Virus record (IMG/VR): IMGVR_UViG_3300032308_000833
Coordinates: 1 to 64,000 of that record
Reading direction: 5' to 3' (one strand)
DNA length: 64,000 bases
Source: a virus
Shown: positions 10,788-35,952 of the stretch, piece after piece
Numbering within the stretch: position 1 is the stretch's first letter
How the letters are laid out: the number at the start of each line of letters is the position of its first letter
Translations under genes and position numbers: made by a program
The notes under the pieces: generated by a model
Seen by the model: the letters and a program-made list of their open reading frames with translations, nothing else
Database searches by the model: none
Told to the model about the DNA's origin: nothing

Positions 10788-11534
10788 TTATTGACAGCCG
10801 TGTACTTCGTATATTTTTTGTTTTGTTTTTTCAAAAAGATGTTTGTATCTTACGTTAGCAAAATATCCACATAAGTCTTCTTGTGTGTCGAACCAAGCCT
10901 TGTCTAGAGGATTCTTTTCATCAGCGAGTCTTTGAGAAGACATTAAGAATATGTCGTAGTAATCTTCTTCTGTAAAGTTTGAGTCTGGTCTGAAGTGTAC
11001 GTGATGTGATCCTGAGAACCATACTGCGTCGTTAGTTTTGGTTTCGTATAGTGTGTCTTCTACGTAAAAGTCCCAATCAACTGTTTTATTTAATTGAATT
11101 GTATTAGTTACGTGCATTCTGTCATGGTGTTTGTCACAGTGTGGCATTAAACTAGGTAGTCCAGCCTCTTTGGTGTATCTTGCAAAGAAAAGTCCTGGTT
11201 CTTGTACTTCTTCGCCAACTAGTGATTCTATTTTCTTTTTAAATTTTTGTTTTACAGAATCAGGGTACATGATTCCGTTTTCTTTTTGTTCGTTTAGTAT
11301 ATAGAATCCGTTGTTAGAAATTTTTAGAAAGTAAGCCCATTGGTCTTCTTTTTCGTCTATTCCTCTTTGCATTGTTTTTACAACAACGTCATATATTGCA
11401 CCGTATTCTTCGGCAGTGAAAAAGTTTTCTTCTACAAAGTGATCTGGTTTAGCAGGCTCAACGTGATGTGCCTTCCACTTGGGATCTAATTGCTCTAATG
11501 TGTTTTCCATATTTATCCTATTCGTTGTTTCCAT
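10788..11534 (-). CDS. 2OG-Fe(II) oxygenase-like protein (paralog 3 of tandem trio)
   Basis: ARY..LMPHCD...DW...FSGSHHVHFRP: HxD...H triad plus Arg. Confidence 0.75.
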   Translation of the reverse strand: METTNRINMENTLEQLDPKWKAHHVEPAKPDHFVEENFFTAEEYGAIYDVVVKTMQRGIDEKEDQWAYFLKISNNGFYILNEQKENGIMYPDSVKQKFKKKIESLVGEEVQEPGLFFARYTKEAGLPSLMPHCDKHHDRMHVTNTIQLNKTVDWDFYVEDTLYETKTNDAVWFSGSHHVHFRPDSNFTEEDYYDIFLMSSQRLADEKNPLDKAWFDTQEDLCGYFANVRYKHLFEKTKQKIYEVHGCQ

Positions 11535-12165
11535 TATAGTTCATTTTTTTATTGTATGTTTCAACATCGTATAGTCTTTCCCATTCGAGGCACCATAGTC
11601 CGTTTCTTTCATCCATAGTCTTTTTGTGTTCTTCGCTTAGGGATCTGTCTTCGTCGGTTAGTTCGTCAATTTGGCATACAATTATGTCGTAGTAGTCGTC
11701 TTCTTTAAATTCTACGTCTGGTCTCCAGTGAACATGGTGGGATCCTGAGAATAACACTCCATCATTTTTGCGGGGTATAAACTTTTCGCCTTCAACATAT
11801 ATATCCCAATTAAAGGTAGTATCTAACACTACGGCAACAGAAAAGGTTGCTTTCTTTAAAGCCCTATCGTAATGTGGCATAAGTAAAGGTTTGTGACCTG
11901 ATTGTAATGAATATCTAGCATAGTGAACTGATATTCTTTCTATGCTGATTCCTAGTTCTGTTCCTATCTTTTTCCACAAAACACTAGAAATGTTGTTATT
12001 TAAATAAATCCCTGTTGACGTGTATCCTAGGTCTTCAACAACTCTCACATATTCTGCAACTTTACTGTTCTTATCTATTTCTCTGTAAAGGTTTGCGTAA
12101 TCTTCGTCGTTAAAAATGTTTTTTATTAATTTTGGTTTAAGGTTGGAGTAAGCCGTTAGACTCAT
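11518..12165 (-). CDS. 2OG-Fe(II) oxygenase-like protein (paralog 2)
   Basis: ARY..LMPHYD...FSGSHHVHWRP. Confidence 0.75.
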   Translation of the reverse strand: MSLTAYSNLKPKLIKNIFNDEDYANLYREIDKNSKVAEYVRVVEDLGYTSTGIYLNNNISSVLWKKIGTELGISIERISVHYARYSLQSGHKPLLMPHYDRALKKATFSVAVVLDTTFNWDIYVEGEKFIPRKNDGVLFSGSHHVHWRPDVEFKEDDYYDIIVCQIDELTDEDRSLSEEHKKTMDERNGLWCLEWERLYDVETYNKKMNYNGNNE

Positions 12166-12769
12166 ATTTTTTCCACCAATCTGTGCTTGCTTCTGATCTG
12201 TTCTTAATCATGTCGTCCCAATATTTGTTATCAAGTCTTACTGGATTCTTGTCTATAAATTGAACTAAGAAAAAATCATAGTAATCATCTGGACCAAATT
12301 CTATTTTTGGTCTCCAATGTAAATGGTGTGTTCCTGAAAACAAGAATGCTTGGTTTGATTTAATTTCAAACTCTTCATCTTCAGCAATGATATTCCAATC
12401 AAGTGTTGTGTCTAAAACAATTGTTAAAGTAATGGATCCACAGTCAATCATTGTGTCGAAGTGTGGTTTTAAAACTGGCGGGTATCCAGTTTTCCATGTG
12501 TATCTATTATAAATAAACATGTGCTTATCTGGATCACTATCCAACGGATACACTTCGTTAATCTTATCCAACATGATTTGGTTATAAGGTTCTTTGATGT
12601 AAACGTTTCTAGCAAAATATCCCATTGGTTCATTTAACTGATCTTCATCAAAATCATGTTCCGATATAAGATCATACAAACCTTTGTATTCCGATTCTGT
12701 AAAAAAATCGGGTATAACAGTTGGCTTCAAATCAAAATAAGGTTTATCTTTATCTGGCCACTTAATCAT
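12137..12769 (-). CDS. 2OG-Fe(II) oxygenase-like protein (paralog 1)
   Basis: NRY..LKPHFD...FSGTHHLHWRP. Confidence 0.75.
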   Translation of the reverse strand: MIKWPDKDKPYFDLKPTVIPDFFTESEYKGLYDLISEHDFDEDQLNEPMGYFARNVYIKEPYNQIMLDKINEVYPLDSDPDKHMFIYNRYTWKTGYPPVLKPHFDTMIDCGSITLTIVLDTTLDWNIIAEDEEFEIKSNQAFLFSGTHHLHWRPKIEFGPDDYYDFFLVQFIDKNPVRLDNKYWDDMIKNRSEASTDWWKKYESNGLLQP

Positions 12770-14138: not shown

Positions 14139-14867
14139 ATGGCAATATCACGCAGCATGGGTTTTCCTATACAAGAAAAACAAAAAATTAATGCAGTTGA
14201 TCAGGAAACCCCACAACTACAATTTTTACCAGTCCCAGGACCACAAGGTGCACCAGGACCTCAAGGTGCAATGGGGCCACAAGGAATACAAGGTCCTAAA
14301 GGTGAAAAAGGTGACAAAGGTGATGCTGGTGCAGATGGAAAAAATGGCAAGAATGGTATAAACGGTAAAAATGGAGAAAGTTATTTTCCAGTTTACAAAC
14401 AACAACCAGGTTGGGCCAGTTACGAAGACACATCTTCTAAAATTTTTAGCATAGACCCATCCAGAGGTGAAAACGGATGGCACGATTTATACATTGACAA
14501 AAAAGGCATATCAAAAAACCAATCATTCCTACCATTAAACTGCAACACCCTTTACAACGAACAATCCAGAGTACTAACATTTAGAAGTTTAGAAATAGGA
14601 TCAACTGTTAGACTTACCTATAACTTTTCACTTGAAACCTTTATTAACAATACTGAATTTTGGTTTGCTACCGTATACCCCGAAATTGACAAATCAGTTC
14701 TAACAATGGTTGGATCATTTAAATACCAAGGAATCTTTGACCTAACAGTTGACCAAACCATACACATAGAAAATAAAGAAATGTGGTTTAACTTCTGCAG
14801 ACCATATGCAAAATCAGATCATTTAACAAACCTAATACTAAAAAAAATATATGTATCAGTTTCATAG
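14139..14867 (+). CDS. Collagen-like (Gly-X-Y) fibre protein
   Basis: About 16 G-X-Y triplets (GPQGAPGPQG...GKNGE) followed by a beta-rich domain. Confidence 0.8.
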   Translation: MAISRSMGFPIQEKQKINAVDQETPQLQFLPVPGPQGAPGPQGAMGPQGIQGPKGEKGDKGDAGADGKNGKNGINGKNGESYFPVYKQQPGWASYEDTSSKIFSIDPSRGENGWHDLYIDKKGISKNQSFLPLNCNTLYNEQSRVLTFRSLEIGSTVRLTYNFSLETFINNTEFWFATVYPEIDKSVLTMVGSFKYQGIFDLTVDQTIHIENKEMWFNFCRPYAKSDHLTNLILKKIYVSVS

Positions 14868-16290: not shown

Positions 16291-16388
16291 TGGCCGATAA
16301 CATAATTTTAAAAGAAATTGCAATTGCAAAACTAGTTGCACTAGGTTTAACAGAAGAAGAACTTAAAGCAATAGGAATCGGTGAATAA
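16290..16388 (+). CDS. 32-aa protein with AKLxALGLTEEE motif
   Basis: Manual translation; TAATG overlaps on both sides. Confidence 0.55.
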   Translation: MADNIILKEIAIAKLVALGLTEEELKAIGIGE

Positions 16389-17038
16389 TGCCATCATTAA
16401 ATACTACTGGTAAAACAGCATACGTTTACGATCAAGAAACAGACACGTTCTACGCACTTGGTGCAAACACAAACACTGCTGCAAATTATATTTGGTCTGG
16501 AACACAAGAATTTCAAAACAATGTTACATTTTCAGATACTAATGCAGTAATTACTGCTAAGGCTGGAATAAACAACTTTTTAAATCCTGCAGCAAGAGAT
16601 GCAGCATTAGCCTCACCAGTAAGAGGAACAGTTTGTTTTGTTAGACAAACCGCAGGTGCTGTAGCAATTAATGATTTACAATTTTACAACGGAACTAATT
16701 GGATATCTTATGGTGGTTTGGTTACTTTTAATAAGCAGGCTGGTAGCGGATCACAAAATTATGATTTAACATTAAGTGATATTGGTCAAAGTATAACTTT
16801 TGATTCTACAGGAGCATGGACAGTAACTATTCCACCTAATTCAAGTATTGCTTTTCCAATAGGATCAGAAATAGATGTTTTTAGAATGAATACTGGATCT
16901 GTTACATTTGTTCCAGGTGCAGGAGTTACTTTAAATAGTAAAAATACAAATAGATCAATTGCAGCAAGGTATTCAGGTGCATCCTTGTTTAAGTTTGATA
17001 CAAACACTTGGCTTCTAGTCGGCGACTTGATCGCATAA
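16388..17038 (+). CDS. Tail-fibre protein with C-terminal adaptor-like domain (paralog of the 23176 C-terminus)
   Basis: TIPPNSSIAFPIGSEI...GVTLN...NTWLLVGDLIA. Confidence 0.7.
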   Translation: MPSLNTTGKTAYVYDQETDTFYALGANTNTAANYIWSGTQEFQNNVTFSDTNAVITAKAGINNFLNPAARDAALASPVRGTVCFVRQTAGAVAINDLQFYNGTNWISYGGLVTFNKQAGSGSQNYDLTLSDIGQSITFDSTGAWTVTIPPNSSIAFPIGSEIDVFRMNTGSVTFVPGAGVTLNSKNTNRSIAARYSGASLFKFDTNTWLLVGDLIA

Positions 17039-17047
17039 GGGTTTGCT

Positions 17048-17962
17048 ATGGCATTATTTGGAAAACTAGTTAAATACGTTGTAAAAAAAGGAATGAAACT
17101 GGTTCCTAATTTTATTGGAAGAACAAGTGCACAGGCTCAAGCAGATGTTGTATCTGAAGGTTTTGTTTTAGGTAATGTAACCACTACAGTTTCTGGAGAA
17201 CCTGCTGAATTAGCAAACGATGGATTAATTGTTGAGCAGATTCCCGCAGTTACAACACCAGCAGATTATGAAGCACCTGTTGATTTAACCGTAAGACAGT
17301 TTAGTTTTACACCATTTGGTGTATTTGGATTTTCACCTTTCAACGTTTTTGGATTCTCACCTTTCAACGTTTTTGGATTCTCACCTTTTAACGTTTTTGG
17401 ATTTTCACCTTTTAGAGTTTTTGGATTCTCACCAACTACCTATACTTTTTCATTTTCACCAGTTCCATATTGCATAGATGAAAATACACCAGTATTAACT
17501 AAAGAAGGATATAAGTTAGCAAAAGATATAGTTGTTAACGATATATTAATGACTAAAACTTTTGATGGTTTACCTATAACAAACCATGAAGGTTTAAAAT
17601 CTTGGTCAGATACTATAGATAAAGAATATCATTCTGTAGAGTCTAAAGTAACAAACATTAAAAAAACTAATGTTCTTGAAACTATTATAATTAATGATGA
17701 TAAGTATAAAAGATTTTCTACTCAAGAAGATATTTTAATAATAAGAGAAGAAAAATTAATGTTTTGTGTTGCTTCTGAATTAAAAATAAATGATCAAATA
17801 GTAAAAAGTCCAACCGAAATGATTGGCGATCAAATAGCATGTATTGTTTATAAAATAGAAACAGTAAAAGAAGATAGAAATGTTTATGATTTTATGAGAG
17901 AACCATTTGGCTTGATTGTGGCAGATTCTTTACTTGTATATAATGCTTATCCAGTAGATTAA
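17048..17962 (+). CDS. PASTA domain + FGFSPFxV repeats + C-terminal Hint domain protein
   Basis: VPNFIGRT..QA...G.IVEQ.P (PASTA); YCIDENTPVLT..G.KLAKDI...VYDF...LLVYN (Hint). Confidence 0.8.
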   Translation: MALFGKLVKYVVKKGMKLVPNFIGRTSAQAQADVVSEGFVLGNVTTTVSGEPAELANDGLIVEQIPAVTTPADYEAPVDLTVRQFSFTPFGVFGFSPFNVFGFSPFNVFGFSPFNVFGFSPFRVFGFSPTTYTFSFSPVPYCIDENTPVLTKEGYKLAKDIVVNDILMTKTFDGLPITNHEGLKSWSDTIDKEYHSVESKVTNIKKTNVLETIIINDDKYKRFSTQEDILIIREEKLMFCVASELKINDQIVKSPTEMIGDQIACIVYKIETVKEDRNVYDFMREPFGLIVADSLLVYNAYPVD

Positions 17963-18534
17963 TCTTTAGGAAACTGATACATAAATTCTCTAGTTTTTGA
18001 AGTTATGCCTTTCCAAGGTCCCCAATTTTTTCCACCATCACTCATTATGTAAGCAACTTGACAGTTAATTGATGGGTTTAAAAGTTGACTTGTGTAGTCT
18101 AGATTATATTTTTCTTTTCTATCAGCATTAAGGTCACCAATCATATTTATTTGAAATAATCCGTATGATTTGTCTCCAGTGCTTTTATTGCCATTAAAGG
18201 CCAATGAGTTCCCCATTGATTCTTTTTTAACAATAGCCCAAGCCTCTACCAAATGCTTATTTTCAAAACCACAAGCAGATAACAAAGTTTTTAGTTCAAT
18301 GTCAGTAAGTTGTCCTTTATCCTGATATTCAGCAAGGGTTCTTACATTATCTCTAGATGGTTTATTTAAATGATCTGGTCTAGAAAGCAAAAAAACCGCC
18401 TCAGCGGTAAATGTTGCATATTTATCGTTTTTCAGGTTAGTTTCAACACCTTGAGCATTAGAAATGTTCAAAAATACTGAAGATAATCCAAGACTTGCGA
18501 GCAATCCTATTAAAAATTTTTTATCTTTTTTCAT
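17959..18534 (-). CDS. Secreted SLT / lysozyme-fold transglycosylase
   Basis: Signal peptide; AIVKKES catalytic Glu; SYGLFQIN; NWGPW. Confidence 0.85.
   Translation of the reverse strand: MKKDKKFLIGLLASLGLSSVFLNISNAQGVETNLKNDKYATFTAEAVFLLSRPDHLNKPSRDNVRTLAEYQDKGQLTDIELKTLLSACGFENKHLVEAWAIVKKESMGNSLAFNGNKSTGDKSYGLFQINMIGDLNADRKEKYNLDYTSQLLNPSINCQVAYIMSDGGKNWGPWKGITSKTREFMYQFPKD
18389..18408 (-). terminator. Intragenic intrinsic-terminator-like hairpin in the SLT gene
   Basis: Sense strand ACCGC-TGAG-GCGGT-TTTTTT. Confidence 0.55.
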
Positions 18535-18672
18535 AGTTCTCTCCTAAGAAAACATGACACCCTTGGTAGGTGTCATATATCAAGTATAACATCTATTTGC
18601 CAGTAAGTCAAATCAAAAATGTCATATTAGTAAGATAATACAAAAAATTATTTAAAATGATATAATATTTGT

Positions 18673-19200
18673 ATGGCAACAGGTCAATCAAGCATATATA
18701 ATTTACCATACCCACAAGTTGATGATAGTGTAAACGTACATGGAGATATTGCTTCTTTAGCAACTTCATTAGATAATACACTTGCTGGACTTGGCTTATC
18801 TTACATGAAATTAGATGTAATTAATACATCTGGAGCATCAATTGCAGCAGGATCTCCTGTATTTATTAATGGTCATAATTCAGGACAAGATTTAACAACA
18901 GTAGGAAAAGCAATTCCTACAACAACATCACCAATATTAGGATTATTAAAATCTACAACAGCAAATAATGCACAAGGAATATGTGTAGTCTCTGGAGTAT
19001 TACCAGATGTTAATACATCTGAATTTGTTGCAGGTGATATTTTGTATGTAAAGACTGGTGGAGGTTTAACAAATGTTAGACCATCAGGTGGTGCAGGTGC
19101 AGTAGCAGTTTGTGCCTATGCAGATGCATCTAATGGAGTTCTTGTAGTTACCGCCAAAGGTAACGGTACTTGGGGAGCATTAAAGAACGGTCTTTCATAA
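18673..19200 (+). CDS. Virion structural protein (cement/fibre-like)
   Basis: YNLPYP N-terminus; GSPVFI...G.C.VSG...AGDILYV; leaderless. Confidence 0.6.
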   Translation: MATGQSSIYNLPYPQVDDSVNVHGDIASLATSLDNTLAGLGLSYMKLDVINTSGASIAAGSPVFINGHNSGQDLTTVGKAIPTTTSPILGLLKSTTANNAQGICVVSGVLPDVNTSEFVAGDILYVKTGGGLTNVRPSGGAGAVAVCAYADASNGVLVVTAKGNGTWGALKNGLS

Positions 19201-19230
19201 TTATTTATCCAAACATGATATAATTACAAT

Positions 19231-19638
19231 ATGGCCATTCTCAGAAACTCATCTCAAGATTTATACAACGTAGGTGCTAAACCCCCAACCGTTAAATGGA
19301 CAGTAGTTCGTGGTGACACCTCAGCATTTAAAGTTTACGTAACAGACGACGCCCAAGCCCCTTTAGTTATAGCAGATTGGGATATTGCTATGAAAATTAA
19401 AAGACCAAACCTTGCTAAAGATCTTGGAGTAATAACGGATAATGCAAATACAATTATGCTTTTGACTCCTGCAGCAGATGCAGATGATTTGGCTGGAGAA
19501 TTTACAGTTAGACTTGCAGCAGAAGAATCACACAATCTTCAAACAGGAGATATTTTTGATATCGAGTTATCTACAGCAGAAATTGTTTGGACAGTTGCAC
19601 AAGGTAGCATGATTATACTTGAAGATGTAACTGACTAA
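19231..19638 (+). CDS. BppU-N-like virion structural protein
   Basis: VRGDT...FDIEL...WTVAQG...EDVT. Confidence 0.65.
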   Translation: MAILRNSSQDLYNVGAKPPTVKWTVVRGDTSAFKVYVTDDAQAPLVIADWDIAMKIKRPNLAKDLGVITDNANTIMLLTPAADADDLAGEFTVRLAAEESHNLQTGDIFDIELSTAEIVWTVAQGSMIILEDVTD

Positions 19639-19862
19639 TGGCAACAGCAATTATTGTTGATGACAATAAACAAAAATTAAGACGTATTGAAACCTCAGAC
19701 TATTACCAAACCAAAATATCCTACAAGCCTAGCACGGTAGAGATAAATTACACTTTACCTTTTAGAATAAGATTTACAACAATAACAGTAGAAGGGTATG
19801 GTCCAGGTAATGTGCCCCCAATTCCTTTACAGGTTATTGGCTATAGCAACTATATACTGTAG
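19638..19862 (+). CDS. Hypothetical protein
   Basis: ORF track; TAATG overlap. Confidence 0.6.
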   Translation: MATAIIVDDNKQKLRRIETSDYYQTKISYKPSTVEINYTLPFRIRFTTITVEGYGPGNVPPIPLQVIGYSNYIL

Positions 19863-19871
19863 AATAGACAT

Positions 19872-20603
19872 ATGGCTAAAAAAGAAAAACCTAGCATATT
19901 TATAGCAACCCCAATGTACGGTGGGGTTTGTCATGGATACTTTATGAAAAGTGTCATGGGACTAGTAATGAAACTAACCTACAAAGGATACAAAGTAACC
20001 TTTAACGACTTGTACAACGAATCTTTAATTAACAGGGCCAGAAACACCCTTACAGAACTATTCTTAAGATCTGATGCTGACTACCTATTGTTTATTGATG
20101 GTGACGAAGGTTTTAACGCTGATGGTGTTATAGATATGATTGATACAGATTTAGATATTATTGGGGCTGCCGTGCCAATGAAAGCAATTAACTGGGCTAA
20201 CGTAGAAAAAGCAGCAGAATTAAAAAAACCTGATTTGAAAAGGTTTGGATCTTATGTAAACATAAACTTTGTTGATAGACAAGACTTACATAAGGTAGCA
20301 GATAATCCTAAAAAACCATTAGAGGTAAAAAACATAGGAACTGGTTTGCTGTTAATTAAACGTAATGTTTTTGAAACAATGAAAGAGCATGTTGGAAAAT
20401 ATAAAAGTGATCAACTAGATTTGGGTGGTATTAAAAAAGGTGAATACATTTATGATTTTTGGAAAACACAGGTAGACCCAGAAGAAGAAAGACTTTTGTC
20501 AGAAGACTACTATTTCTGTACACTATGGCGTAAACTTGGCGGTTCTGTGTATGTAGCACCACACGTTAAGGTAGTGCACGTAGGAACCTATATATTTGTT
20601 TAA
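19872..20603 (+). CDS. GT-A fold glycosyltransferase-like protein
   Basis: FIATPMYGG, ESLINRARN, LFIDGD, GTGLLLIKR, LSEDYYFC, HVG. Confidence 0.8.
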   Translation: MAKKEKPSIFIATPMYGGVCHGYFMKSVMGLVMKLTYKGYKVTFNDLYNESLINRARNTLTELFLRSDADYLLFIDGDEGFNADGVIDMIDTDLDIIGAAVPMKAINWANVEKAAELKKPDLKRFGSYVNINFVDRQDLHKVADNPKKPLEVKNIGTGLLLIKRNVFETMKEHVGKYKSDQLDLGGIKKGEYIYDFWKTQVDPEEERLLSEDYYFCTLWRKLGGSVYVAPHVKVVHVGTYIFV

Positions 20604-20642
20604 TTTGCAATAATTTTGTAAAAATAATGTTATAATTTAGTC

Positions 20643-21089
20643 ATGGCACAACAATCAATTGCAACAGTAAAATCACGTTATGAGACTGGCGATAGGCCAT
20701 CTCAGCAAGACTATGAAGATTTAATTGACACTACCGCGTCCCAAGCAACACGCCTTGGTACTTTTGGTAATAACGACAATACAATATCAGAAATTCAGAA
20801 CACAACAATTGTTGATAGTTTTGATGCAACAGAGTGGAGAATGGTTAAGTACCTTGTTTCAATTTCTAAAACAACACAAGGCGATAACTATTTTTACGCA
20901 ACAGAATTGACCATATTGGTTGACGGAGCAGATGTTTCCGTAAGCGAATATGGGACAATAGACAACGATGGGAATATTGGAACCATAAGCGTCTCAAGGG
21001 CTGGAAATACAGTGGCTTTAACAATCACTCCAGACTCAGTAATAAAGCCAGTCACCTTGCGTTACGCACGCATGGGACTTAAGGCATAA
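20643..21089 (+). CDS. Virion structural protein; domain shared with the 21101 C-terminus
   Basis: DSFDATEWRMVKYLV...SEYG aligns with DWALAEYRSAEFLV...TEYA. Confidence 0.65.
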   Translation: MAQQSIATVKSRYETGDRPSQQDYEDLIDTTASQATRLGTFGNNDNTISEIQNTTIVDSFDATEWRMVKYLVSISKTTQGDNYFYATELTILVDGADVSVSEYGTIDNDGNIGTISVSRAGNTVALTITPDSVIKPVTLRYARMGLKA

Positions 21090-21100
21090 GGAGATAAAAT

Positions 21101-22633
21101 ATGGCAACATTAAATAAAAATTTCAAGATTAAACATGGTTTAATCGTTGAAGGAACAACAGGTACAATTAACAACTTTGACATCTTGACAAAAAGTACAG
21201 ATGATCAAAACTACATTATAGACCTGGTTGGTGGAGACGCTTCATCAAACGCAGTAGCAAACACACTAGTACTTCGTGATGCAAATGCAAACTTTTTTGC
21301 AAATACAATCACAGCAGACTTAGTTGGAGATGTAACTGGTCAAGTATCAGACATTTCTAATCATGATTCTGATGATGTAGCAGAAGGTACAACAAACCTT
21401 TACTTTACAAACGAAAGAGCAGCAAATGCAACTGCAGCATCCTATGATGCTATAGGCTCAGCAGCAAATGCTTATTCAAATGCAACTGCTTACACAGATC
21501 TAGAAGTAGGTAATGCAATTGCTGACTTAGAAGACTATGCAGATTTTGCAGCAGGAAATGCTTTAGCAAATGCAAACTCATACACTGACAACGCAATTTC
21601 TAATGCAGTCTCTGACTTAGAAGAATACACTGACTTTGCAGTAGGCAATGCAGTGGCTGACTTAGAAGATTATGCAGACTTTGCAGTAGGTAATGCAATT
21701 GCTGATTTAACAAACAATGCACCAGCGTTATTAGATACACTTAACGAAATCGCAGAAGCAATTGGTGACGATGCAAACTTTGTTGGAACAATAACCAACT
21801 TAGTTGCAGAAAAACAAAATGCTTTGATTGCAGGAACTGACATTGATATCGTAGGAAACACAATTTCCTTTACTGGAAGTTACGATCCTTCAGGCTCAGC
21901 AGCAAATGCTTATTCAAATGCAACTGCTTACACAGATCTAGAAATAGGAAATGCATATGCAGATTTAGAACTGTTTGCTAACAACGCAGCAGGTAATGCT
22001 TTAGCAAATGCAAATTCTTACACAGATAATGCAATTGGTCTTTTGTCAACAACTGATATCGAAGAAGGAACAAACGAATACTTCACAGATACAAGGGCTA
22101 AAGAGTCAGCAGCAAGTTTGTTAACAATGGCAACTCTAACAAATATCTCAATCACAGGTAACTCTGAAGGATTGGTAATTACAGCAGAAAATGGTGTAGG
22201 AGACTCTAACACAGATGCGTTGGCTGAAGGTTCAACAAACCTTTATTTCACAGATCAACGTGCAGTAGATGCTCTTGAAGCAATAATACCTAATTTCACT
22301 GAAATTGATATTAACACAGTTGCTAGACAAGTTGCAGCAACAGTAAATGCTCCAACAGCAAGCACAGTTACAGCAATTGACTGGGCATTAGCAGAATATC
22401 GCTCAGCCGAATTCTTGGTAAAAGTTGCTTACGGTGCACACACAGAAGTTTCAAAAGTTATCTTAACTCTTGATACTTCAAACAACATCGCAATCACAGA
22501 ATACGCAATTGTAGGAACAAATGGATCCGCATCCACAATTTCTGCAGACGTAAACGGAACAGATGTAAGACTAAGAGTAGCAACAGCCAATAACAACTCA
22601 GATGTAACAGTTGTTGGAACATTGTTAGTCTAG
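21101..22633 (+). CDS. Long tail fibre / coiled-coil shaft protein with internal repeats
   Basis: EG.TNLYFT repeats, AN.YTD repeats, APALLDTLNEIA. Confidence 0.75.
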   Translation: MATLNKNFKIKHGLIVEGTTGTINNFDILTKSTDDQNYIIDLVGGDASSNAVANTLVLRDANANFFANTITADLVGDVTGQVSDISNHDSDDVAEGTTNLYFTNERAANATAASYDAIGSAANAYSNATAYTDLEVGNAIADLEDYADFAAGNALANANSYTDNAISNAVSDLEEYTDFAVGNAVADLEDYADFAVGNAIADLTNNAPALLDTLNEIAEAIGDDANFVGTITNLVAEKQNALIAGTDIDIVGNTISFTGSYDPSGSAANAYSNATAYTDLEIGNAYADLELFANNAAGNALANANSYTDNAIGLLSTTDIEEGTNEYFTDTRAKESAASLLTMATLTNISITGNSEGLVITAENGVGDSNTDALAEGSTNLYFTDQRAVDALEAIIPNFTEIDINTVARQVAATVNAPTASTVTAIDWALAEYRSAEFLVKVAYGAHTEVSKVILTLDTSNNIAITEYAIVGTNGSASTISADVNGTDVRLRVATANNNSDVTVVGTLLV

Positions 22634-22654
22634 TAAAAAATTAGGGGGCAGTAA

Positions 22655-23107
22655 ATGACCACAAATCTAAAAGATTTTAAAGTCAAGAATGGATTAGTCG
22701 TAACTAACGGCGGTTCATTTGGAAACGCGGTAGCAGTAGGAGAACCTACATTAGGAACTCACGCTACTACTAAAGATTACGTAGATTCTGTAACTGGTAC
22801 ACCAGTATCAAATACTGCCCCTCTTTCCCCAGACAATGGGGATATGTGGTTTGATACCACGGTAGAAAGATTAAAAGTTTATTATGAAACTGATTGGTTT
22901 ACAATTGCAACAAGCAATGATGTACAAAATATTCCAGATCACATTCATGATACAGCAATTGATGGTAACGGAAGAATTGTTACAGTATTCTGGGATGCTG
23001 AACAATATGACGATCCACAAATTTCTACATTAAGTGGTGGAACACCGTTTTCAAATTCATGGGCAGCAGTATTTGATGGTGGAAATCCAGACAGTGAATT
23101 TAATTAA
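22655..23107 (+). CDS. Putative tail-fibre component
   Basis: DFKVKNGL N-terminus shared with 21101; ATTKDYVD; GDMWFD. Confidence 0.65.
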   Translation: MTTNLKDFKVKNGLVVTNGGSFGNAVAVGEPTLGTHATTKDYVDSVTGTPVSNTAPLSPDNGDMWFDTTVERLKVYYETDWFTIATSNDVQNIPDHIHDTAIDGNGRIVTVFWDAEQYDDPQISTLSGGTPFSNSWAAVFDGGNPDSEFN

Positions 23108-23175
23108 AACATTTTAAAAAACTGTTATAATTAAAACAAAATCAAAAGTAGGTAAGACCTACACAGGGAGATAAA

Positions 23176-24900
23176 ATGGCAACAAGGATGCTACAACGTA
23201 GAGGAACTGCTACACAGTGGGCTAATGCTAACCCTACTCTGGGTTCTGGAGAAATTGGTTTTGAAACCGACACAGGACAATTTAAAATAGGTGACAACTC
23301 TACAGCATGGGATGATTTGCCATACTTTAAAAATATAGAAGATTTAGGCGGAAACCTAGACGATTACATTTTATTAGAACAAAAAGGTGCAGCAAACGGT
23401 GTTGCCACATTAGATGGAAGCAATTTAATCCCTGTAGCACAAATTCCAAATACTATTGCTAGAATTACAGATGTAGGAAACGCAATTTCTAACGCTATAT
23501 CAGATTTAACAAATAACGCACCAGCAATACTAGATACCCTTGCAGAACTAGCAAATGCCATCAATGATGATGGAGATTTTTTCTTAACTATTTCAAACAG
23601 CATTAATAACAGTTTAGATGCCGCTAATGAATACACAGATAATAACATAAATACTTTAGCAAACAACGTTGCAGAAGAAGCAGAATTATTAGCAAACACT
23701 GTTGCAAATAATCTTTCTTGTGCTGTTGCAAGTTTACAAGAAGAAATTGGAAATGCTGTAACTGAATCAGAAGCATATACCGATAACGTTGCTGCTCATA
23801 CTTTAGGAAATGCACAATTTTATACTGATGGTGAAGTAGACATACTTGCAAACTCTATAACAGATGCACTATCAAATGCACATTCATACACAGATACTGA
23901 AGTTTCAGATCATAACCTAGAAACATTAAATGTGCACGGTATATCAAATACAGCAGTACTTGTAACATTAACAGATTTGAGCAATCACGAAACTGACACA
24001 TCAAACGTACATGGTATCACAAATACACTAGCAATAGTGTTTACAGATGATGCAAGACTTTCTGATGCAAGAACACCACTTGCTAACTCTGTTACAAATA
24101 ACTCTATATCAGGAACAATTGATCAAAATAAGATCACAAACCTTGCAACAACACTAGGAAATCTAGCATCCCTTTCAGGTGCAGCGTTTACTGGTAACGT
24201 TTCAACAACTGGTAATTTGACAGTAGACGGAGATTTCACTGTAAGTGGATCTAATGTTCTTGTATCTGCAACACAAATTCAAATAGAGGACACCTTACTA
24301 CAACTTGGTCACACAAATGCTAACAACGTAGCAGATCTAGGTTTAGTAGTTTCTTATAACGATGGAACACAAAAACATGCTGGTATCGTCAAAGACGTTA
24401 CAGATAGCAAATGGAAATTGTTTGATGGTGTTACATCAGAACCTGGAACAACAGTTAACTTTGGACAAGGTTCACTAGATGTTTTGGCACTTTTGACACT
24501 TGAGGCAAACTCAATCACTGCAACATCAGATATCACTGCAAACGGAATCGTATTTGCAGACGGTACACAAAGATTAGAAGGTGTACCTTCACGGACACCT
24601 ATTATTCAAAAGACAGCAAGTTATACTTTGTCAGCATTGACTGAAAGAGATGATTTAATAGAAATGGATAGCGTTAGTGCAACAACGCTGACTATTCCTC
24701 TTAACTCAGCAGTAGCGTTTCCAGTTGGAACATCTATTGATATTCTTCAAACAAATACTGGTCAAGTAACAATCGCAGGAGACGCAGGAGTAACAGTAAA
24801 TGCTACACCAGGTCTTAAACTACGCACACGGTGGTCATCTTGCACTCTATTTAAGAGAGCAACTAACACCTGGGTTGTATACGGCGACTTAACTGCATAA
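23176..24900 (+). CDS. Tail-fibre protein (Mtd-N-like QRRGT..W..ANP.L..GEIG.ETDT N-terminus; adaptor-like C-terminus)
   Basis: Recognisable fibre-attachment N-terminal motif; C-terminus paralogous to 16388. Confidence 0.8.
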   Translation: MATRMLQRRGTATQWANANPTLGSGEIGFETDTGQFKIGDNSTAWDDLPYFKNIEDLGGNLDDYILLEQKGAANGVATLDGSNLIPVAQIPNTIARITDVGNAISNAISDLTNNAPAILDTLAELANAINDDGDFFLTISNSINNSLDAANEYTDNNINTLANNVAEEAELLANTVANNLSCAVASLQEEIGNAVTESEAYTDNVAAHTLGNAQFYTDGEVDILANSITDALSNAHSYTDTEVSDHNLETLNVHGISNTAVLVTLTDLSNHETDTSNVHGITNTLAIVFTDDARLSDARTPLANSVTNNSISGTIDQNKITNLATTLGNLASLSGAAFTGNVSTTGNLTVDGDFTVSGSNVLVSATQIQIEDTLLQLGHTNANNVADLGLVVSYNDGTQKHAGIVKDVTDSKWKLFDGVTSEPGTTVNFGQGSLDVLALLTLEANSITATSDITANGIVFADGTQRLEGVPSRTPIIQKTASYTLSALTERDDLIEMDSVSATTLTIPLNSAVAFPVGTSIDILQTNTGQVTIAGDAGVTVNATPGLKLRTRWSSCTLFKRATNTWVVYGDLTA

Positions 24901-24930
24901 CATTTGATATAATAAGACTAAGGAGATAAC

Positions 24931-26190
24931 ATGGCAATAGGTAAAAAAGTAGGTAAGAAGTCTCAAGGTTCTAATGACTTTTTAATGCCAAGAACACCAA
25001 CTATTGGAACAGCAACAAACGTTGGAACAGGGCGGGCATTTAACAATGGTGCAGCCACAGTAACATTTACAGCAGATCCTACCTATGCAGCAGACTCTTT
25101 TACAGTTACATCAACTCCAGGTAGTTTTACAGCAACAGGAGCATCATCTCCAATTACAGTTACAGGATTACAATCAGATACAGCATATACTTTTAAAGTA
25201 ACTGCAACAAATACTTATGGAACATCAGGTGAATCAGAGGCATCTAACTCTATTACAGCAACAACTGTTCCAGCAACACCAGCAGCACCAAGTGCATCAT
25301 CACCAAACGCTGATCAAGATGTAATTTCATGGGATGCACCAGCAAACGGTGGATCAGTAATAACAAATTATCATTGGCAATCAAATGAAGCCCCTGTTAA
25401 AGAAGGAGATACTGCGACTACGCTTAACGCAACAGTAGGGCAAGAAGCAGGAACAGCACAACGGTACAAAGTTTATGCAACTAACGCTAACGGAAACTCA
25501 GAATATTCTGCATTATCAGCAGAAGTAACAACAACATTTTCTTTCGTACCTTTTGGTGTGTTTGGTTTTTCACCATTTACAGTGTTTGGTTTCTCTCCGT
25601 TTAACGTGTTTGGTTTTTCACCATTTAACGTATTTGGTTTCTCACCATTCAGAGTATTTGGTTTCTCACCATTCAGAGTATTTGGTTTCTCACCAACTAC
25701 ATACTGTGTAGATGAAGATGCACCAGTTCTTACAACAACTGGAAATAAAAAAGCAAAAGACATTGAACTTGGAGATAAATTAATTGTAAAAGCATTTGAA
25801 GAAATGCCAGTTGGAGATCTTTACAAAATTGTACTTTGGAAAAAAAGAGGTAACCTAACAAATTACAGAGAATTAGAAGCAGATGTAACTAAGATTACAC
25901 CAACAGTAGTACATGAAACAGTTATGTTTAATAATGATCCAAACATGAGATTTTCATTACTAGAAGATATGTTTGTAATTAAAAATGGTTTATATGGTTT
26001 TGTTTCTTCAAGAGAAATTAAACCTGGAGATAAAATTATTACAAGAGATTCTTTGATGGTAGTAGAAACTGTTGAAATAGTTAACGAAACAAGAACTGTT
26101 TACAGTTTTGGAAGATATCCAATTGGATTAGTTATAGCAGGAGGATTAGTTCATTATAACGACTACTCTCCTTCAGAAATACCAGATTAA
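24931..26190 (+). CDS. Two FN3 domains + FGFSPFxV repeats + C-terminal Hint domain protein
   Basis: TVTGLQSDTAYTFKVTATN and W.AP.NGGS.IT.Y (FN3); YCVDEDAPVLT..G.KKAKDI...VYSF...VHYN (Hint). Confidence 0.85.
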   Translation: MAIGKKVGKKSQGSNDFLMPRTPTIGTATNVGTGRAFNNGAATVTFTADPTYAADSFTVTSTPGSFTATGASSPITVTGLQSDTAYTFKVTATNTYGTSGESEASNSITATTVPATPAAPSASSPNADQDVISWDAPANGGSVITNYHWQSNEAPVKEGDTATTLNATVGQEAGTAQRYKVYATNANGNSEYSALSAEVTTTFSFVPFGVFGFSPFTVFGFSPFNVFGFSPFNVFGFSPFRVFGFSPFRVFGFSPTTYCVDEDAPVLTTTGNKKAKDIELGDKLIVKAFEEMPVGDLYKIVLWKKRGNLTNYRELEADVTKITPTVVHETVMFNNDPNMRFSLLEDMFVIKNGLYGFVSSREIKPGDKIITRDSLMVVETVEIVNETRTVYSFGRYPIGLVIAGGLVHYNDYSPSEIPD

Positions 26191-26242: not shown

Positions 26243-26908
26243 ATGAGACAAGGGCCACCACCAGAATTACGTGGTATTCAGCAATCAATTAAACCACATA
26301 AGTTTTTTGAAAGACATCTAAACAATGATTTAGATTTATTAGCAAATGAATTAACTGACAGATATCAAAGTATTGAAAAAGTAGAACTAGATGGTATTAC
26401 TCCAGTTAACAGTAAAGATTATTGGCAAGAATCTGGTAGCGTTTCTACAGTTAAATGGAGAGAGTATAACGTATTTCAGTTTCACATTGATGGTATATAT
26501 GAGTTATATAAAAATATTCAAGACATGACTAAAGAGGCTTGTGAATATTACGAGATAGATTTTGAAAAACAAAGATTTATGTTGCAAGGATGGTTTAATA
26601 TTAATCATAAGAAAAAAGGAAAACTAGACTGGCATGATCATGGTCATACTGGTGCTCCAAATAATTTTCATGGATATTACTGTGTAAAAGCAGAACCATC
26701 ATCAACTTATTATAGAGTTTTTGGTAAAGATATGGAAAATAAAAATATTGATAATCGTGCTATTTTTTCAGAAATGGGACATCCTCATGCACAAGGTGAT
26801 TGGGATTGGGAAGGACCAAGAATTACAGTTGCATATGATGTTGTAACTTTGGAAGAGTTAAAACATGCTGGTAAAGATCATGAGCAACACTGGATACCTT
26901 TGATATGA
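26243..26908 (+). CDS. Putative 2OG-Fe(II) oxygenase (HxH type)
   Basis: GWFN..WHDH..FHGYY..GHPH..RITVAYD. Confidence 0.75.
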   Translation: MRQGPPPELRGIQQSIKPHKFFERHLNNDLDLLANELTDRYQSIEKVELDGITPVNSKDYWQESGSVSTVKWREYNVFQFHIDGIYELYKNIQDMTKEACEYYEIDFEKQRFMLQGWFNINHKKKGKLDWHDHGHTGAPNNFHGYYCVKAEPSSTYYRVFGKDMENKNIDNRAIFSEMGHPHAQGDWDWEGPRITVAYDVVTLEELKHAGKDHEQHWIPLI

Positions 26909-27534
26909 TAAAGGAAAAACCAACACATAAATTTTTTGAAAGATATGTTGACAATGACCTAACGCAACTTTCAAGATATTTGTTAAAACTTGAAAAAGAT
27001 TTATTTGAAGGGGTCTATCCAAAAGTTTCTAAAGAGTTTGCTAATAATATTGGTGGTGTTCATAATTTAGGAACAAAGTTTAATATTTTTCAGTGCTATA
27101 GTCCACAAATTCACAAATTGTTTTCTGCACTTAGAGAATTAACTATAGATGCTTGTGAGTATTACGATATTGATTATAAAAAACAATCTTACATGGTTCA
27201 GGGTTGGTTTAACACAGACGGAATAGCAGAACCACCAGTTAATGAATCAACTCATTATCACGATCATCTAGGTGGTACTGGTGCACCAAACTTTCATGGT
27301 TATTACTGTGTAGATGCTGAGCCATCTTTTACTTATTATAAAATTGGTGGTCAAGATAAAGAATCAATTCAAAATATTAACAAGAACAATAGAGCCATAT
27401 TGTCAGAAACTGGTCACCCACATGGAATAGGTCCTTGGCCTTTTGATAAACCAAGAATTACTATTGCTTATGATATATCTCCAGTTACTCATATGAGTGG
27501 AAGTGAATTACAACATTGGGTTCCTTTACCTTAA
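26905..27534 (+). CDS. Putative 2OG-Fe(II) oxygenase, tandem paralog
   Basis: GWFN..YHDH..FHGYY..GHPH..RITIAYD. Confidence 0.75.
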   Translation: MIKEKPTHKFFERYVDNDLTQLSRYLLKLEKDLFEGVYPKVSKEFANNIGGVHNLGTKFNIFQCYSPQIHKLFSALRELTIDACEYYDIDYKKQSYMVQGWFNTDGIAEPPVNESTHYHDHLGGTGAPNFHGYYCVDAEPSFTYYKIGGQDKESIQNINKNNRAILSETGHPHGIGPWPFDKPRITIAYDISPVTHMSGSELQHWVPLP

Positions 27535-29782: not shown

Positions 29783-30313
29783 ATGGAAGATTTTAAGTCT
29801 CAAATCAAGTATGTTAAGGGTTTTATGAACCCTCAAGAAGCAGGTTTGGTAACGGAATATGCAAAAAAACATCAAGAACTATTTTCTAATTATGGAAATA
29901 GTGAACAAGAGTTTACGGTTCATACCTATCATGAAATAAATGATCTAGATCCTGCTATTCTTAATATAATTCAAAATGTTGCATTGAAAGTTTATGATTT
30001 TGTTTTAAATAACTATGATTCTGAATTTGAAAATTTTATTGATGAAAAAACACATATTGCAAAATTTGTTGAAGGAAGAGGAATGCATGAACATTTTGAT
30101 GCTTCTAGGCCAAAAGATATAGCAACTTTAGTTTATTTAAATGATGAATATCAAGGTGGAGACATATACTTTCCAAAATATGAAATGTCTTTTAAGCCAG
30201 AACCTGGAGATCTATTATGTTTTCCAGACAATACAAACTTTATTCACGGTGTTAAGCCAATAGTTAAGGGAACAAGGTTTACATTACCTCGTTGGTTTAC
30301 ACGCATTGTGTGA
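29783..30313 (+). CDS. Prolyl-4-hydroxylase-like 2OG-Fe(II) oxygenase
   Basis: HFD..LVYLNDEYQGG..F..HGVKP..G.R. Confidence 0.85.
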   Translation: MEDFKSQIKYVKGFMNPQEAGLVTEYAKKHQELFSNYGNSEQEFTVHTYHEINDLDPAILNIIQNVALKVYDFVLNNYDSEFENFIDEKTHIAKFVEGRGMHEHFDASRPKDIATLVYLNDEYQGGDIYFPKYEMSFKPEPGDLLCFPDNTNFIHGVKPIVKGTRFTLPRWFTRIV

Positions 30314-33961: not shown

Positions 33962-34357
33962 ATGAATAACCAAAATCCAAACAAAAAAAGAAAACCTCGT
34001 ATGAAAGGCCAAATTGGCGACTCTAAAATAACCTTTATTGAAAAGAACTATGATTGGGGCGTTTATGTTTGGAAAAGAGCCAATGGTAAGTGGTTCACTG
34101 ATGGAGAGGGTAATATTTTAAATATACCAGCCGTAAAACACGATATTGCCGCTTTAGCCGAAATAAAAAAGACAGCAGCATATTATGGAGAACCAGATGG
34201 AGAGGCTGTATTTTTTCCAGGTATGGGAAGAGTGTCAGACGAAGAGTATTCTGAACAAGTAGATAGAATGAAAGCGGGATTAATCCCTAACCTTAATGAT
34301 CTTGGTGCAGTAGCAGCAGCCAAAGCAACAATTGCAAAATATGGCGATGAAGAATAA
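33962..34357 (+). CDS. Hypothetical protein coupled to the portal gene
   Basis: ORF track; likely leaderless start after TGGTATACT. Confidence 0.7.
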   Translation: MNNQNPNKKRKPRMKGQIGDSKITFIEKNYDWGVYVWKRANGKWFTDGEGNILNIPAVKHDIAALAEIKKTAAYYGEPDGEAVFFPGMGRVSDEEYSEQVDRMKAGLIPNLNDLGAVAAAKATIAKYGDEE

Positions 34358-35952
34358 TGAGTGAAGAATTTAATTATGTTATTGGTGCTAGGATAGACGA
34401 AAACGAACAAGCAGTTAATGCATTTGCTAGTTCAGACCCATTTAGCAAAAACTGGGAAGAGTTAAAAAACTATTCTGGTTTGGATAATAACTTTAAACGT
34501 CGTGCAGCAAGAATGTCCAAGGCTCTAGTAGATACAACCCAACAATCTTATATTGACAGATCAATTGCAGTTCCACAAGGTATTGATGGTGCTCGCTCTA
34601 ATCAGATAAATCCTGGTAACGTATTTAGAAATGGTTATGGACTATTTGACGTAATCACACCACCATGGAATGTTTATGAACTTGCCAACTACTATGACAC
34701 ATCTTTTGCAAACCACGCTGCTATTGATGCTAAGGTTGAAAATATTGTAGGTTTGGGATATGATTTTGATATATCAAAAAGAACAATGCTCAAATTAGAG
34801 AATTCCTCAAATGACGAATCAGTAAGTCGTGCAAGAAACAGAATTGAAAGAGCAAAAGTAGAGTTACGTGATTGGCTAGAAAGTTTAAACGCAGATGACT
34901 CTTTTACCACAACAATGGAAAAGATATACACAGATGTTCAAGCAATTGGTAATGGATATATGGAAATTGGTAGAACCACTCGTGGTGAAATTGGATACGT
35001 TGGTCATATTCCAGCAACCACAATGCGTTGTCGCAGATTAAGAGATGGATACGTACAGGTTATTGCAAACAAGGTAGTTTACTTTAGAAACTTTGGTGCT
35101 ACAAATTCAAACCCAGTAACTGAAGATCGTAGACCAAACGAAATTATTCATTTTAAACAATACTCACCATTAAACACATTCTATGGTGTTCCAGACATTA
35201 TTTCAGCAATATCATCTCTACATGGTGATCAACTGGCTTCACAATACAACATTGACTACTTTGGTAACAAAGCAGTTCCAAGATACGTAGTAACCATGAA
35301 AGGTGCCAAACTATCTGCAGACGCAGAAGACAAGATGTTTAGATTTTTACAAACTGGATTAAAGGGTCAAAACCATAGAACTTTGTACATACCTCTTCCT
35401 GGAGATACAGAAAATAACAAGGTAGAGTTTAAGATGGAGCCTATTGAATCTGGAGTACAAGAGGGGTCATTTAAGGAATATAGAAAACAAAACCGTGATG
35501 ACATCTTGGTAGCACATCAAGTACCGCTTTCAAAACTAGGTGGATCAGACTCAGGAGCAATTGCAGCAGCATTGGCTCAAGATAGAACATTTAAAGAGCA
35601 GGTAGCCAGACCAGCACAGGCTCAACTAGAAAAACAAATTAATAAGATCATACGCGAGAAACAAGACGTACTAGAGTTTAAGTTTAATGAACTTACTTTG
35701 ACAGATGAAATAGCACAATCACAAATTCTTGAGAGATATGTAAAAACACAGATTATGATGCCTAATGAGGCAAGAGTGGCACTGGGTCTTCCACAAAGAG
35801 ACGGTGGAGATGAACCATTTGTAGCCAAACCAGAGACTATGAATAATGATGCCAATCGTGCAAGAGATGGCGAAAGACTTAACAATCAGTCAGATGGATC
35901 TGCAACTGTAAGTGGTAGAAATCCAAAGGGCGAGGGTAGATCTTCAACCTAG
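34357..35952 (+). CDS. Portal protein
   Basis: GNGYMEI.R, EIIHF...YGVP, F.N.A.P, HQVP, PNEAR..LGLP. Confidence 0.9.
   Translation: MSEEFNYVIGARIDENEQAVNAFASSDPFSKNWEELKNYSGLDNNFKRRAARMSKALVDTTQQSYIDRSIAVPQGIDGARSNQINPGNVFRNGYGLFDVITPPWNVYELANYYDTSFANHAAIDAKVENIVGLGYDFDISKRTMLKLENSSNDESVSRARNRIERAKVELRDWLESLNADDSFTTTMEKIYTDVQAIGNGYMEIGRTTRGEIGYVGHIPATTMRCRRLRDGYVQVIANKVVYFRNFGATNSNPVTEDRRPNEIIHFKQYSPLNTFYGVPDIISAISSLHGDQLASQYNIDYFGNKAVPRYVVTMKGAKLSADAEDKMFRFLQTGLKGQNHRTLYIPLPGDTENNKVEFKMEPIESGVQEGSFKEYRKQNRDDILVAHQVPLSKLGGSDSGAIAAALAQDRTFKEQVARPAQAQLEKQINKIIREKQDVLEFKFNELTLTDEIAQSQILERYVKTQIMMPNEARVALGLPQRDGGDEPFVAKPETMNNDANRARDGERLNNQSDGSATVSGRNPKGEGRSST

Follow-up and report, generated by a model that had tools for sequence, protein, structure and literature searches.

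The window analysed here comprises 64,000 nucleotides from a virus, namely positions 1 to 64,000 of the IMG/VR record IMGVR_UViG_3300032308_000833, which is 80,762 bp long and estimated to be 69% complete. The fibre module of the window harbours two gene pairs (Table 1), each formed by a fibre gene and a downstream gene, called here Hint gene A or B. The product of the downstream gene combines a basic leader, a small head, an array of aromatic and proline-rich repeats, and a C-terminal domain of the Hint (Hedgehog/intein) superfamily. The reading that we somewhat favour, at slightly better than even confidence, is that a Hint domain similar to the type A bacterial intein-like (BIL) domains removes itself from an accessory protein attached to the fibre, exposing an aromatic and proline-rich tail.

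Similarity between fibre proteins 1 and 2 is confined to their last ~90 residues (45% identity, E 1e-20), which belong to a C-terminal domain of ~100 aa referred to here as the knob. Hint proteins A and B can be aligned from the repeats through to the C-terminus (47% identity, E 1e-65). The search with a Hint-domain profile (A2), built with both window copies included, detected exactly two Hint genes in the 80.8-kb record (E 4e-54), and nothing else matched. An initial annotation, made from the sequence alone, had described a duplicated two-gene cassette whose fibre genes end in a common domain, and both the open reading frames (ORFs) and the paralogue alignments bear this out. In both pairs, the fibre gene and the Hint gene are in the same frame. 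The spacer of pair A (17036-17047) consists of a single TAA and three codons, and the spacer of pair B (24898-24930) contains four stops. Fusion of the two genes by read-through was considered as a general mechanism and rejected, since 25 out of 53 pairs in relatives are out of frame. On the opposite strand, a gene encoding a lysozyme-like protein of the SLT_3 type (17959-18534, E 2.7e-13) converges with Hint gene A, and the ends of the two ORFs overlap by 4 nt.

Table 1. Features of the two fibre/Hint gene pairs and of the ORFs that follow the second pair (positions in the window)
Feature	Position	Strand	Basis or content
Fibre gene 1	16388-17038	+	216 aa ORF
Knob of fibre 1, residues ~111-216	nt ~16718-17035	+	ends ...NTWLLVGDLIA
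Hint gene A	17048-17962	+	304 aa ORF
Basic leader (MALFGKLVKYVVKKGMK...) and PASTA-like head, Hint protein A	17048-17299	+	Pfam, charge count
Repeat array A	17300-17470	+	FSFTPFGV, FGFSPFNV x3, FGFSPFRV, FGFSPTTY, TFSFSPVPY
Hint domain A (residues 142-299)	17471-17944	+	Cys1 in CIDENTPV, block B RFSTQE, end VYN
C-terminal tail A, AYPVD, 5 residues	17945-17959	+	after Hint domain A
Fibre gene 2	23176-24900	+	574 aa ORF
Knob of fibre 2, residues ~479-574	nt ~24610-24897	+	45% identity to fibre 1 knob
Hint gene B	24931-26190	+	419 aa ORF
Basic leader (MAIGKKVGKKSQGSNDFLMP...) and two FN3 domains, Hint protein B	24931-25536	+	Pfam fn3
Repeat array B	25537-25704	+	FSFVPFGV, FGFSPFTV, FGFSPFNV x2, FGFSPFRV x2, FGFSPTTY
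Hint domain B (residues 259-410)	25705-26160	+	Cys1 in CVDEDAPV, block B RFSLLE, end HYN
C-terminal tail B, DYSPSEIPD, 9 residues	26161-26187	+	after Hint domain B
Two paralogous ORFs, 221 and 209 aa (26243, 26905)	26243-27534	+	possible 2-oxoglutarate (2OG)-Fe(II)-oxygenase-like; context only

Tandem Repeats Finder (TRF) detected 24-nt tandem arrays at 17324-17433 and 25561-25695. When the first five units of arrays A and B are compared in order, 38 of the 40 codons specify the same residue, and at 22 of these the two arrays use different, synonymous codons. The Gly codon is GGA throughout array A and GGT throughout array B, and the variable position of the unit follows the same order in both arrays (G, N/T, N, N, R). 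Between Hint domains A and B, identity is limited to 61 of 157 aligned residues. Identical residues with synonymously different codons, next to diverged Hint domains, indicate far stronger conservation of the peptide than of its flanks, a pattern that recent gene conversion fails to account for. Rather, the codons point to arrays that were each homogenised internally, with the peptide held constant between the paralogues. A fair reading of the two sequences is that selection acts on the repeat peptide, as had been proposed initially. The arrays end at a Tyr-Cys junction (VPY/C in A, TTY/C in B), the Cys of which is the first residue of the predicted Hint fold, in agreement with the initial annotation.

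Relatives of the module were collected as 175 loci from IMG/VR, found with single proteins and with a degenerate DNA pattern of the repeat. The 64 residues before the first Cys of the Hint domain (Cys1) are of low complexity and rich in aromatic residues and Pro in all fifty representatives of clusters formed at 50% identity, with a mean composition of ~30% Phe, Tyr or Trp and ~13% Pro across all 172 domains. The repeat units differ among lineages, including FGFSPFxV, GFSPF, YSFTP, PFFPPFFP, GFFAPP, IIATP, PPVAPP and others, and their period ranges from 3 to 12. Since relatives carry other units in the same place, the octapeptide appears to be the version of one lineage of a general aromatic and proline-rich stalk or tail. 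The pattern VxGxxxxx is known from the triple beta-helix of T4 gp5 (PMC4576200). VFGFSPFx fits this pattern, but the periods of 3 to 12 in relatives argue against a gp5-like helix as a common structure, and we keep it as a lead only. In the AlphaFold2 (AF2) monomer model of protein A, the repeat and the head have a predicted local distance difference test (pLDDT) score of ~45-50. This score and the variable period lend no support to the beta zipper or the membrane insertion initially suggested for the repeat. The conserved aromatic and proline-rich tail, exposed if the Hint domain cleaves, is an unexplained feature.

The AF2 model of protein A, built from a 70-sequence alignment, predicts the C-terminal domain with a pLDDT >90 over most of residues 141-300 and of ~78-88 at residues 251-270. 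The top Foldseek matches of Hint domain A in the PDB were all inteins, BIL domains or Hedgehog (TMt up to 0.77, E down to 1.5e-7). They include the BIL domain 2lwy of C. thermocellum (TMt 0.76), Hedgehog 1at0 (TMt 0.70), the inteins PhoCDC21-1, TvoVMA and gp41-1, and BIL2 of Tetrahymena BUBL (6y75). The family profile matched the PDB sequences of 2lwy (E 2.6e-8) and of the Pho RadA intein (E 4e-8). Pfam matches of the window copies alone were weak (Hint 0.036, Hint_2 0.082). Single Pfam scans of twenty-four family members, twenty-two relatives and the two window copies, revealed Intein_splicing (PF14890) in seventeen (best E 8e-8) and weak PT-HINT matches in seven; window copy A had no match in its single-member scan. 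Model, structure search and profiles agree with the Hint fold initially assigned, and on this basis the C-terminal domain of ~160 amino acids is a member of the Hint superfamily.

The Hint family consists of 481 word-index matches, grouped in 243 clusters at 50% identity. Its active site was surveyed in 171 full-length domains, and counts of clusters refer to fifty clusters of these at the same threshold. Position 1, which abuts the hypervariable low-complexity stretch, is Cys in 166 domains, including both window copies, and Ser in the remaining five. A nucleophile is hence kept in every member beside a hypervariable repeat, and this provides the strongest reason to believe that the chemistry remains in use. 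The Ser or Thr of block B is also present in every domain. The main argument for caution is the missing His of block B: this position is Glu in 133 domains, Gln in twenty and His in eighteen. Both window copies possess Glu there (S-T-Q-E and S-L-L-E) in place of the Thr-x-x-His of canonical inteins. The terminal Asn is found in 115 out of 171 domains and 40 out of 50 clusters. Among the members with Ser1, Asp replaces this Asn in four out of five, and the remaining one is gapped at this position. His occupies the penultimate position in 41 of the 50 clusters, and Tyr occupies it in the window copies, which fall in a branch characterised by the block-B Glu and the Tyr-Asn ending.

Position +1 after the Hint domain lacks a conserved Cys, Ser or Thr among the 171 domains; it is Ala in window copy A and Asp in copy B. 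Most clusters carry Lys at +1 or +2. The tail after the domain is at most ~20 residues long across the family and never forms a domain. The Hint domain is therefore not an intein, because a C-extein and a +1 nucleophile are missing; the canonical (class 1) type is also excluded by the window copies, which lack Thr-x-x-His in block B. A polymorphic-toxin PT-HINT was discarded in view of the missing toxin domain downstream, and autoprocessing of the Hedgehog/Hog type in view of the missing adduct (sterol) recognition region after the Hint domain. As judged from sequence, the domain fits the definition of a type A BIL, with Cys1, a C-terminal Asn and no +1 nucleophile. Type A BIL domains were reportedly described by Amitai in 2003 and by Dassa in 2004.

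The N-terminal parts of the two Hint proteins are of different types. The initial annotation had assigned a PASTA head to protein A and two FN3 domains to protein B. The FN3 assignment holds (Pfam fn3, E 4e-8), and positions ~20-200 of the family profile match FN3 pairs of titin and fibronectin. The PASTA match, however, is weak (E 1.8e-4; 21.8 bits, under the Pfam cut-off of 23.2) and lies in a region of low AF2 confidence. Many relatives have a precomputed match to PF03793 (PASTA). The first twenty residues of Hint protein A have a net charge of +5. Across the family, the mean charge of this segment is +2.9, compared with +0.19 for the other ORFs of the same loci, and a charge of at least +4 was found in 42% of the Hint proteins versus 1.6% of the other ORFs.

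Fibre 1 matches PHROG tail and minor-tail families at its C-terminus. Fibre 2 possesses an N-terminus of the Mtd_N type (PF18454, E 8.6e-12), and many PHROG tail-fibre families match it. The AF2 model of fibre 1 has a pLDDT of ~75 at residues 111-120, ~88 at residues 121-140 and >90 from residue 141. Alignment of the modelled knob with VIA-align gave Z scores of 8.8-14.2, with a root-mean-square deviation (rmsd) of 1.8-3.0 over 89-98 residues. The Pa223 capsid spike matched best, through its C-terminal domain (Z 14.2, rmsd 1.8), and further matches were baseplate proteins of Klebsiella phage KP1 (Z ~10), residues 80-180 of CBA120 TSP4 and residues 46-149 of T4 gp10 (both Z 8.8). According to the model, the knob is an XD1-like fold as in T4 gp9/gp10. 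Six positions are invariant in the knob alignment (P149, G159, K202, W208, G212 and D213). As a separate observation, residues ~60-110 of fibre 1 show a weak structural resemblance (Z ~5 over 45-53 aligned residues) to the trimerisation domains of collagen XV/XVIII, a hint from modelling that fibre 1 may be a trimer. The fibre module may also contain a further piece of the gp9/gp10 type, a 148-aa ORF at 20643-21089 (+) with a weak T4_gp9_10_C match (E 0.003).

The XD1 domains of T4 gp9/gp10 and CBA120 TSP4 (PDB 5iv5, 7rej) share the knob fold over ~90-97 aligned residues, and the proteins that bear them build branched fibre and spike assemblies (PMC8825819). Unlike in T4 gp9/gp10, the knob is located at the C-terminal end of the fibre. 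In proteins of the gp9/gp10 type, docking is performed by XD2 and XD3, and XD1 has no settled role (PMC8825819). An assignment of the knob as a docking domain of the XD2/XD3 type was rejected, as the match is to XD1 instead. Therefore, the shared domain that had been annotated as a fibre adaptor is real and has a predicted XD1-like fold, but its adaptor role is a guess.

The gene pair is also present in other genomes. The upstream gene could be read for 57 distinct Hint genes; in 54 of these cases its product ends in the knob, and 6-34 nt separate the two genes. The fibre-Hint linkage indicated by the window is thus conserved. The knob-bearing fibres of relatives are ~100 to 905 aa long. Two separate repeat-bearing loci were obtained from each of at least nine contigs, and two Hint genes were shown directly for two of the loci (L070 and L168). 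The tight pairing and the repeated double loci identify the gene pair as a conserved module, and the cassette was probably duplicated long ago. The metagenome protein cluster P0212 (916 aa) encodes a knob fibre and a Hint protein with a Cys-rich head and a PFFPP repeat as one chain. Other fusions of knob and Hint were not found, and none of twenty-two longer knob proteins contains a Hint domain.

The knob also ends minor tail proteins in 223 records of Gordonia phages. In two of these phages, Fugax (L175, 3531-4466) and Tolls (L176, 2628-4462), the minor tail gene that ends in the knob is followed by a gene encoding a small beta-rich protein. This protein starts with a basic N-terminus (MVLPAPRFRTTRKW... 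and MALPANRFRAARRA...) and has neither the repeat nor a Hint domain, and the gene pair looks like a simpler version of the module. Because these proteins and the Hint proteins both start basic, we infer docking of the downstream protein on the knob through its basic N-terminus, an arrangement in which the repeat and the Hint domain would lie distally. We propose this docking role of the knob with reserve because XD1 is not the known docking domain.

Under the favoured reading, each cassette would produce together a fibre with an XD1-like knob and an accessory protein, composed of a basic N-terminus, a small binding head (PASTA-like or two FN3), an aromatic and proline-rich stalk or tail, and the C-terminal Hint domain. 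The accessory protein would sit on the fibre knob. The Hint domain would act once and in cis: Cys1 would attack the Tyr-Cys peptide bond in an N-S acyl shift, and the resulting thioester would be resolved mainly by hydrolysis, releasing the Hint domain. Where the terminal Asn is kept, the short C-terminal tail would be released as well. The mature protein would then end with the Phe/Pro repeat, a maturation analogous to that of other phage fibres with self-cleaving C-terminal chaperone domains. A virion context is supported by the PHROG tail families matched by the fibres and by the occurrence of the knob fold in phage baseplate and spike proteins.

Several observations weigh against self-removal of the Hint domain. 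The block-B His, normal promoter of the N-S shift, is absent in the window copies and in most of the family, and the penultimate residue of the window copies is Tyr rather than His. The Hint reaction could thus be slow, conditional or lost. The terminal Asn has been lost in several Cys1 subfamilies, so that C-terminal cleavage is not general. Moreover, the location in the virion is read from gene order and domain types only, and docking by the basic N-terminus is a proposal.

The module shares features with three known systems. Type A BILs form an N-terminal thioester, their Asn can cyclise, and they mostly cleave and occasionally splice by aminolysis (PMC4031507). Similar to the type A BIL 2lwy, the phage domains have a Hint fold, Cys1, a (His/Tyr)-Asn end and no +1 nucleophile, and they occur in variable proteins of surface type. 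However, the phage family is encoded in a tail-fibre module, lies always at the extreme C-terminus (0-20 residues after it), is always preceded by an aromatic and proline-rich repeat, and has mostly Glu or Gln for the block-B His. As in Hedgehog/Hog proteins (1at0), a C-terminal Hint domain would remove itself from the N-terminal part via a Cys1 thioester. In contrast to these proteins, a sterol-recognition region is missing, the terminal Asn is intein-like and no lipid acceptor is indicated. The C-terminal intramolecular chaperones of the Peptidase_S74 type in phage fibres and tailspikes self-cleave (PMC10579305, PMC8326128). They resemble the Hint domain in their C-terminal position in a protein of the fibre module, behind a repetitive fibrous segment, and in the proposed removal after synthesis. 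Nevertheless, the folds are unrelated, and the phage domain would use a Hint thioester instead of a Ser-Lys dyad. The Pfam search of the window proteins revealed no match to Peptidase_S74.

Downstream of Hint gene B, the paralogous ORFs 26243 and 26905 share 41% identity and the His clusters WHDHG ... HPH. In their family, His 131, 133 and 182 are invariant and His 180 is conserved in at least 90%. Pfam detected no match in any of thirty-eight members, and the profile matched no PDB sequence. The language-model search of the Atlas returned viral clusters with PF13759 (score 0.96), which we regard as a lead only. Homologues of 26243/26905 follow FN3-type Hint genes in many loci and never the PASTA-type copy. 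In relatives of the PFFPP type, the Hint gene is followed by two to three copies of two other ORF families, searched with two ORFs of locus L004 as seeds. One of these includes the window ORF 29783-30313 (+), which has a match to 2OG-FeII_Oxy_3 (prolyl-hydroxylase type, E 1.4e-10) and is located ~3.6 kb downstream of Hint gene B, and the other family has no Pfam match. A collagen-like protein (Pfam Collagen PF01391, E 1.3e-9) is encoded at the start of the fibre module (14139-14867, +). As a further observation, three tandem paralogous ORFs of 248, 215 and 210 aa, without Pfam match, lie at 10788-12769 (-) and are related to the ORF 11210-11770 that follows the Hint gene of locus L004.

Other uses of the Hint domain were considered. 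Instead of plain release, the thioester could serve for ligation, with the C-terminus of the repeat transferred to a nucleophile such as a Lys or the amino terminus of the knob or of a different virion protein, or a cell-wall amine of the host. Another option is splicing as in type A BILs, which would join AYPVD or DYSPSEIPD onto the repeat. Transfer is what Hint domains perform in Hedgehog, type A BILs are able to splice by aminolysis (PMC4031507), and BIL2 of Tetrahymena BUBL is among the best structural matches. The frequent terminal Asn, together with Lys at +1 or +2 in most clusters, is also hard to explain by N-terminal cleavage alone, and a possible acceptor exists in the invariant K202 of the knob. 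The tight pairing of fibre and Hint genes and the single chain of P0212 point in the same direction. On balance, we consider ligation unlikely: an adduct-recognition region is missing and the tails are at most ~20 aa, the invariant Lys may be merely structural, the Asn has been lost in several subfamilies, and cleavage is dominant in the studied BILs (PMC4031507). More specifically, the Hint domain might be a built-in single-use ligase, which passes a latent thioester of the tail to the amine of the knob Lys or of the host cell wall. Guidance would come from the PASTA or FN3 head, and a virion protein would make a covalent link in the manner of a sortase or a thioester adhesin. This version is improbable.

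In another alternative, the exchange of the block-B His for Glu would have disabled the chemistry, and the Hint domain would be retained at the distal end as an inactive structural or binding domain. The window copies and ~90% of the family lack this His, the penultimate His is replaced by Tyr in the window copies, and their direct Pfam scores are very weak. Nonetheless, all 171 domains keep a nucleophile at position 1, at the border of the hypervariable repeat, at identities of only 25-35%. The only replacement of Cys1 is Ser, paired with Asp at the other splice position, which is a catalytic pattern, and there is no second conserved Cys to pair with Cys1. Inactivity thus seems rather unlikely. 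Furthermore, the repeat had been proposed as a multi-core substrate, similar to those of ribosomally synthesised and post-translationally modified peptides (RiPPs), of the adjacent oxygenases; hydroxylation or glycosylation by the oxygenase-like neighbours would belong to the same explanation, and Hint cleavage would free the modified peptide. In its favour are the ORFs that follow FN3-type and PFFPP-type Hint genes, including the 2OG-FeII_Oxy_3 ORF, and the PF13759 lead. However, the link rests on adjacency at the FN3-type copy, comparable genes are missing next to the PASTA-type cassette, and the contrast in enzyme types comes from only two phage lineages with conserved gene order. The ORFs 26243/26905 match no oxygenase family of Pfam, a folded head of 200-260 aa is unlike a RiPP leader, and the collagen-like protein of the window is a possible, and obvious, alternative substrate for a prolyl hydroxylase or for the other 2OG-Fe(II)-oxygenase-like genes. 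A substrate role of the repeat is therefore very improbable.

To our knowledge, self-cleaving C-terminal domains of phage fibres are known only of the S74 chaperone type. In the module described here, hundreds of protein clusters of uncultured aquatic phages have a domain of the Hint/BIL type in that position, and the layout of fibre, repeat and Hint domain is common in these phages. The literature searched for Hint or intein-like domains in phages contained no description of Hint domains on fibre-module proteins, and the automatic name of a few relatives in UniProt is "Hint domain containing protein". The architecture is real, conserved and built from known parts, and apparently undescribed. 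If active, the Hint domains would represent a second, chemically different route to mature, or to attach covalently, a host-recognition protein. Of interest for intein chemistry, they would also constitute a natural collection of Hint domains that cleave themselves off a C-terminus and have unusual active sites, in which Glu or Gln replaces the block-B His.

Among 50,697 phage records searched with tblastn, no match of cultured phages to the 419-aa FN3-type Hint protein was found. The portal protein (34357-35952, +) shares 47% identity over 95% of its length with that of the ~131-kb Streptomyces phages BoomerJR, Yaboi and Coruscant. This portal, the PASTA-like head and the Gordonia-type knob suggest, on sequence grounds, an actinobacterial host. 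The search of 185,579 bacterial and archaeal species genomes with the repeat DNA pattern detected only three stretches, which belong to two metagenome-assembled genomes (MAGs), two of them on one 74-kb contig and one on an 889-bp contig. The 74-kb contig (JBIPOM010000254.1; L179/L181), from the bin of a lake Flavobacterium MAG, harbours two loci with the FGFSPF repeat. As the phage contigs recovered in this analysis are of comparable size, the 74-kb contig may derive from a phage and have been binned with bacterial DNA.

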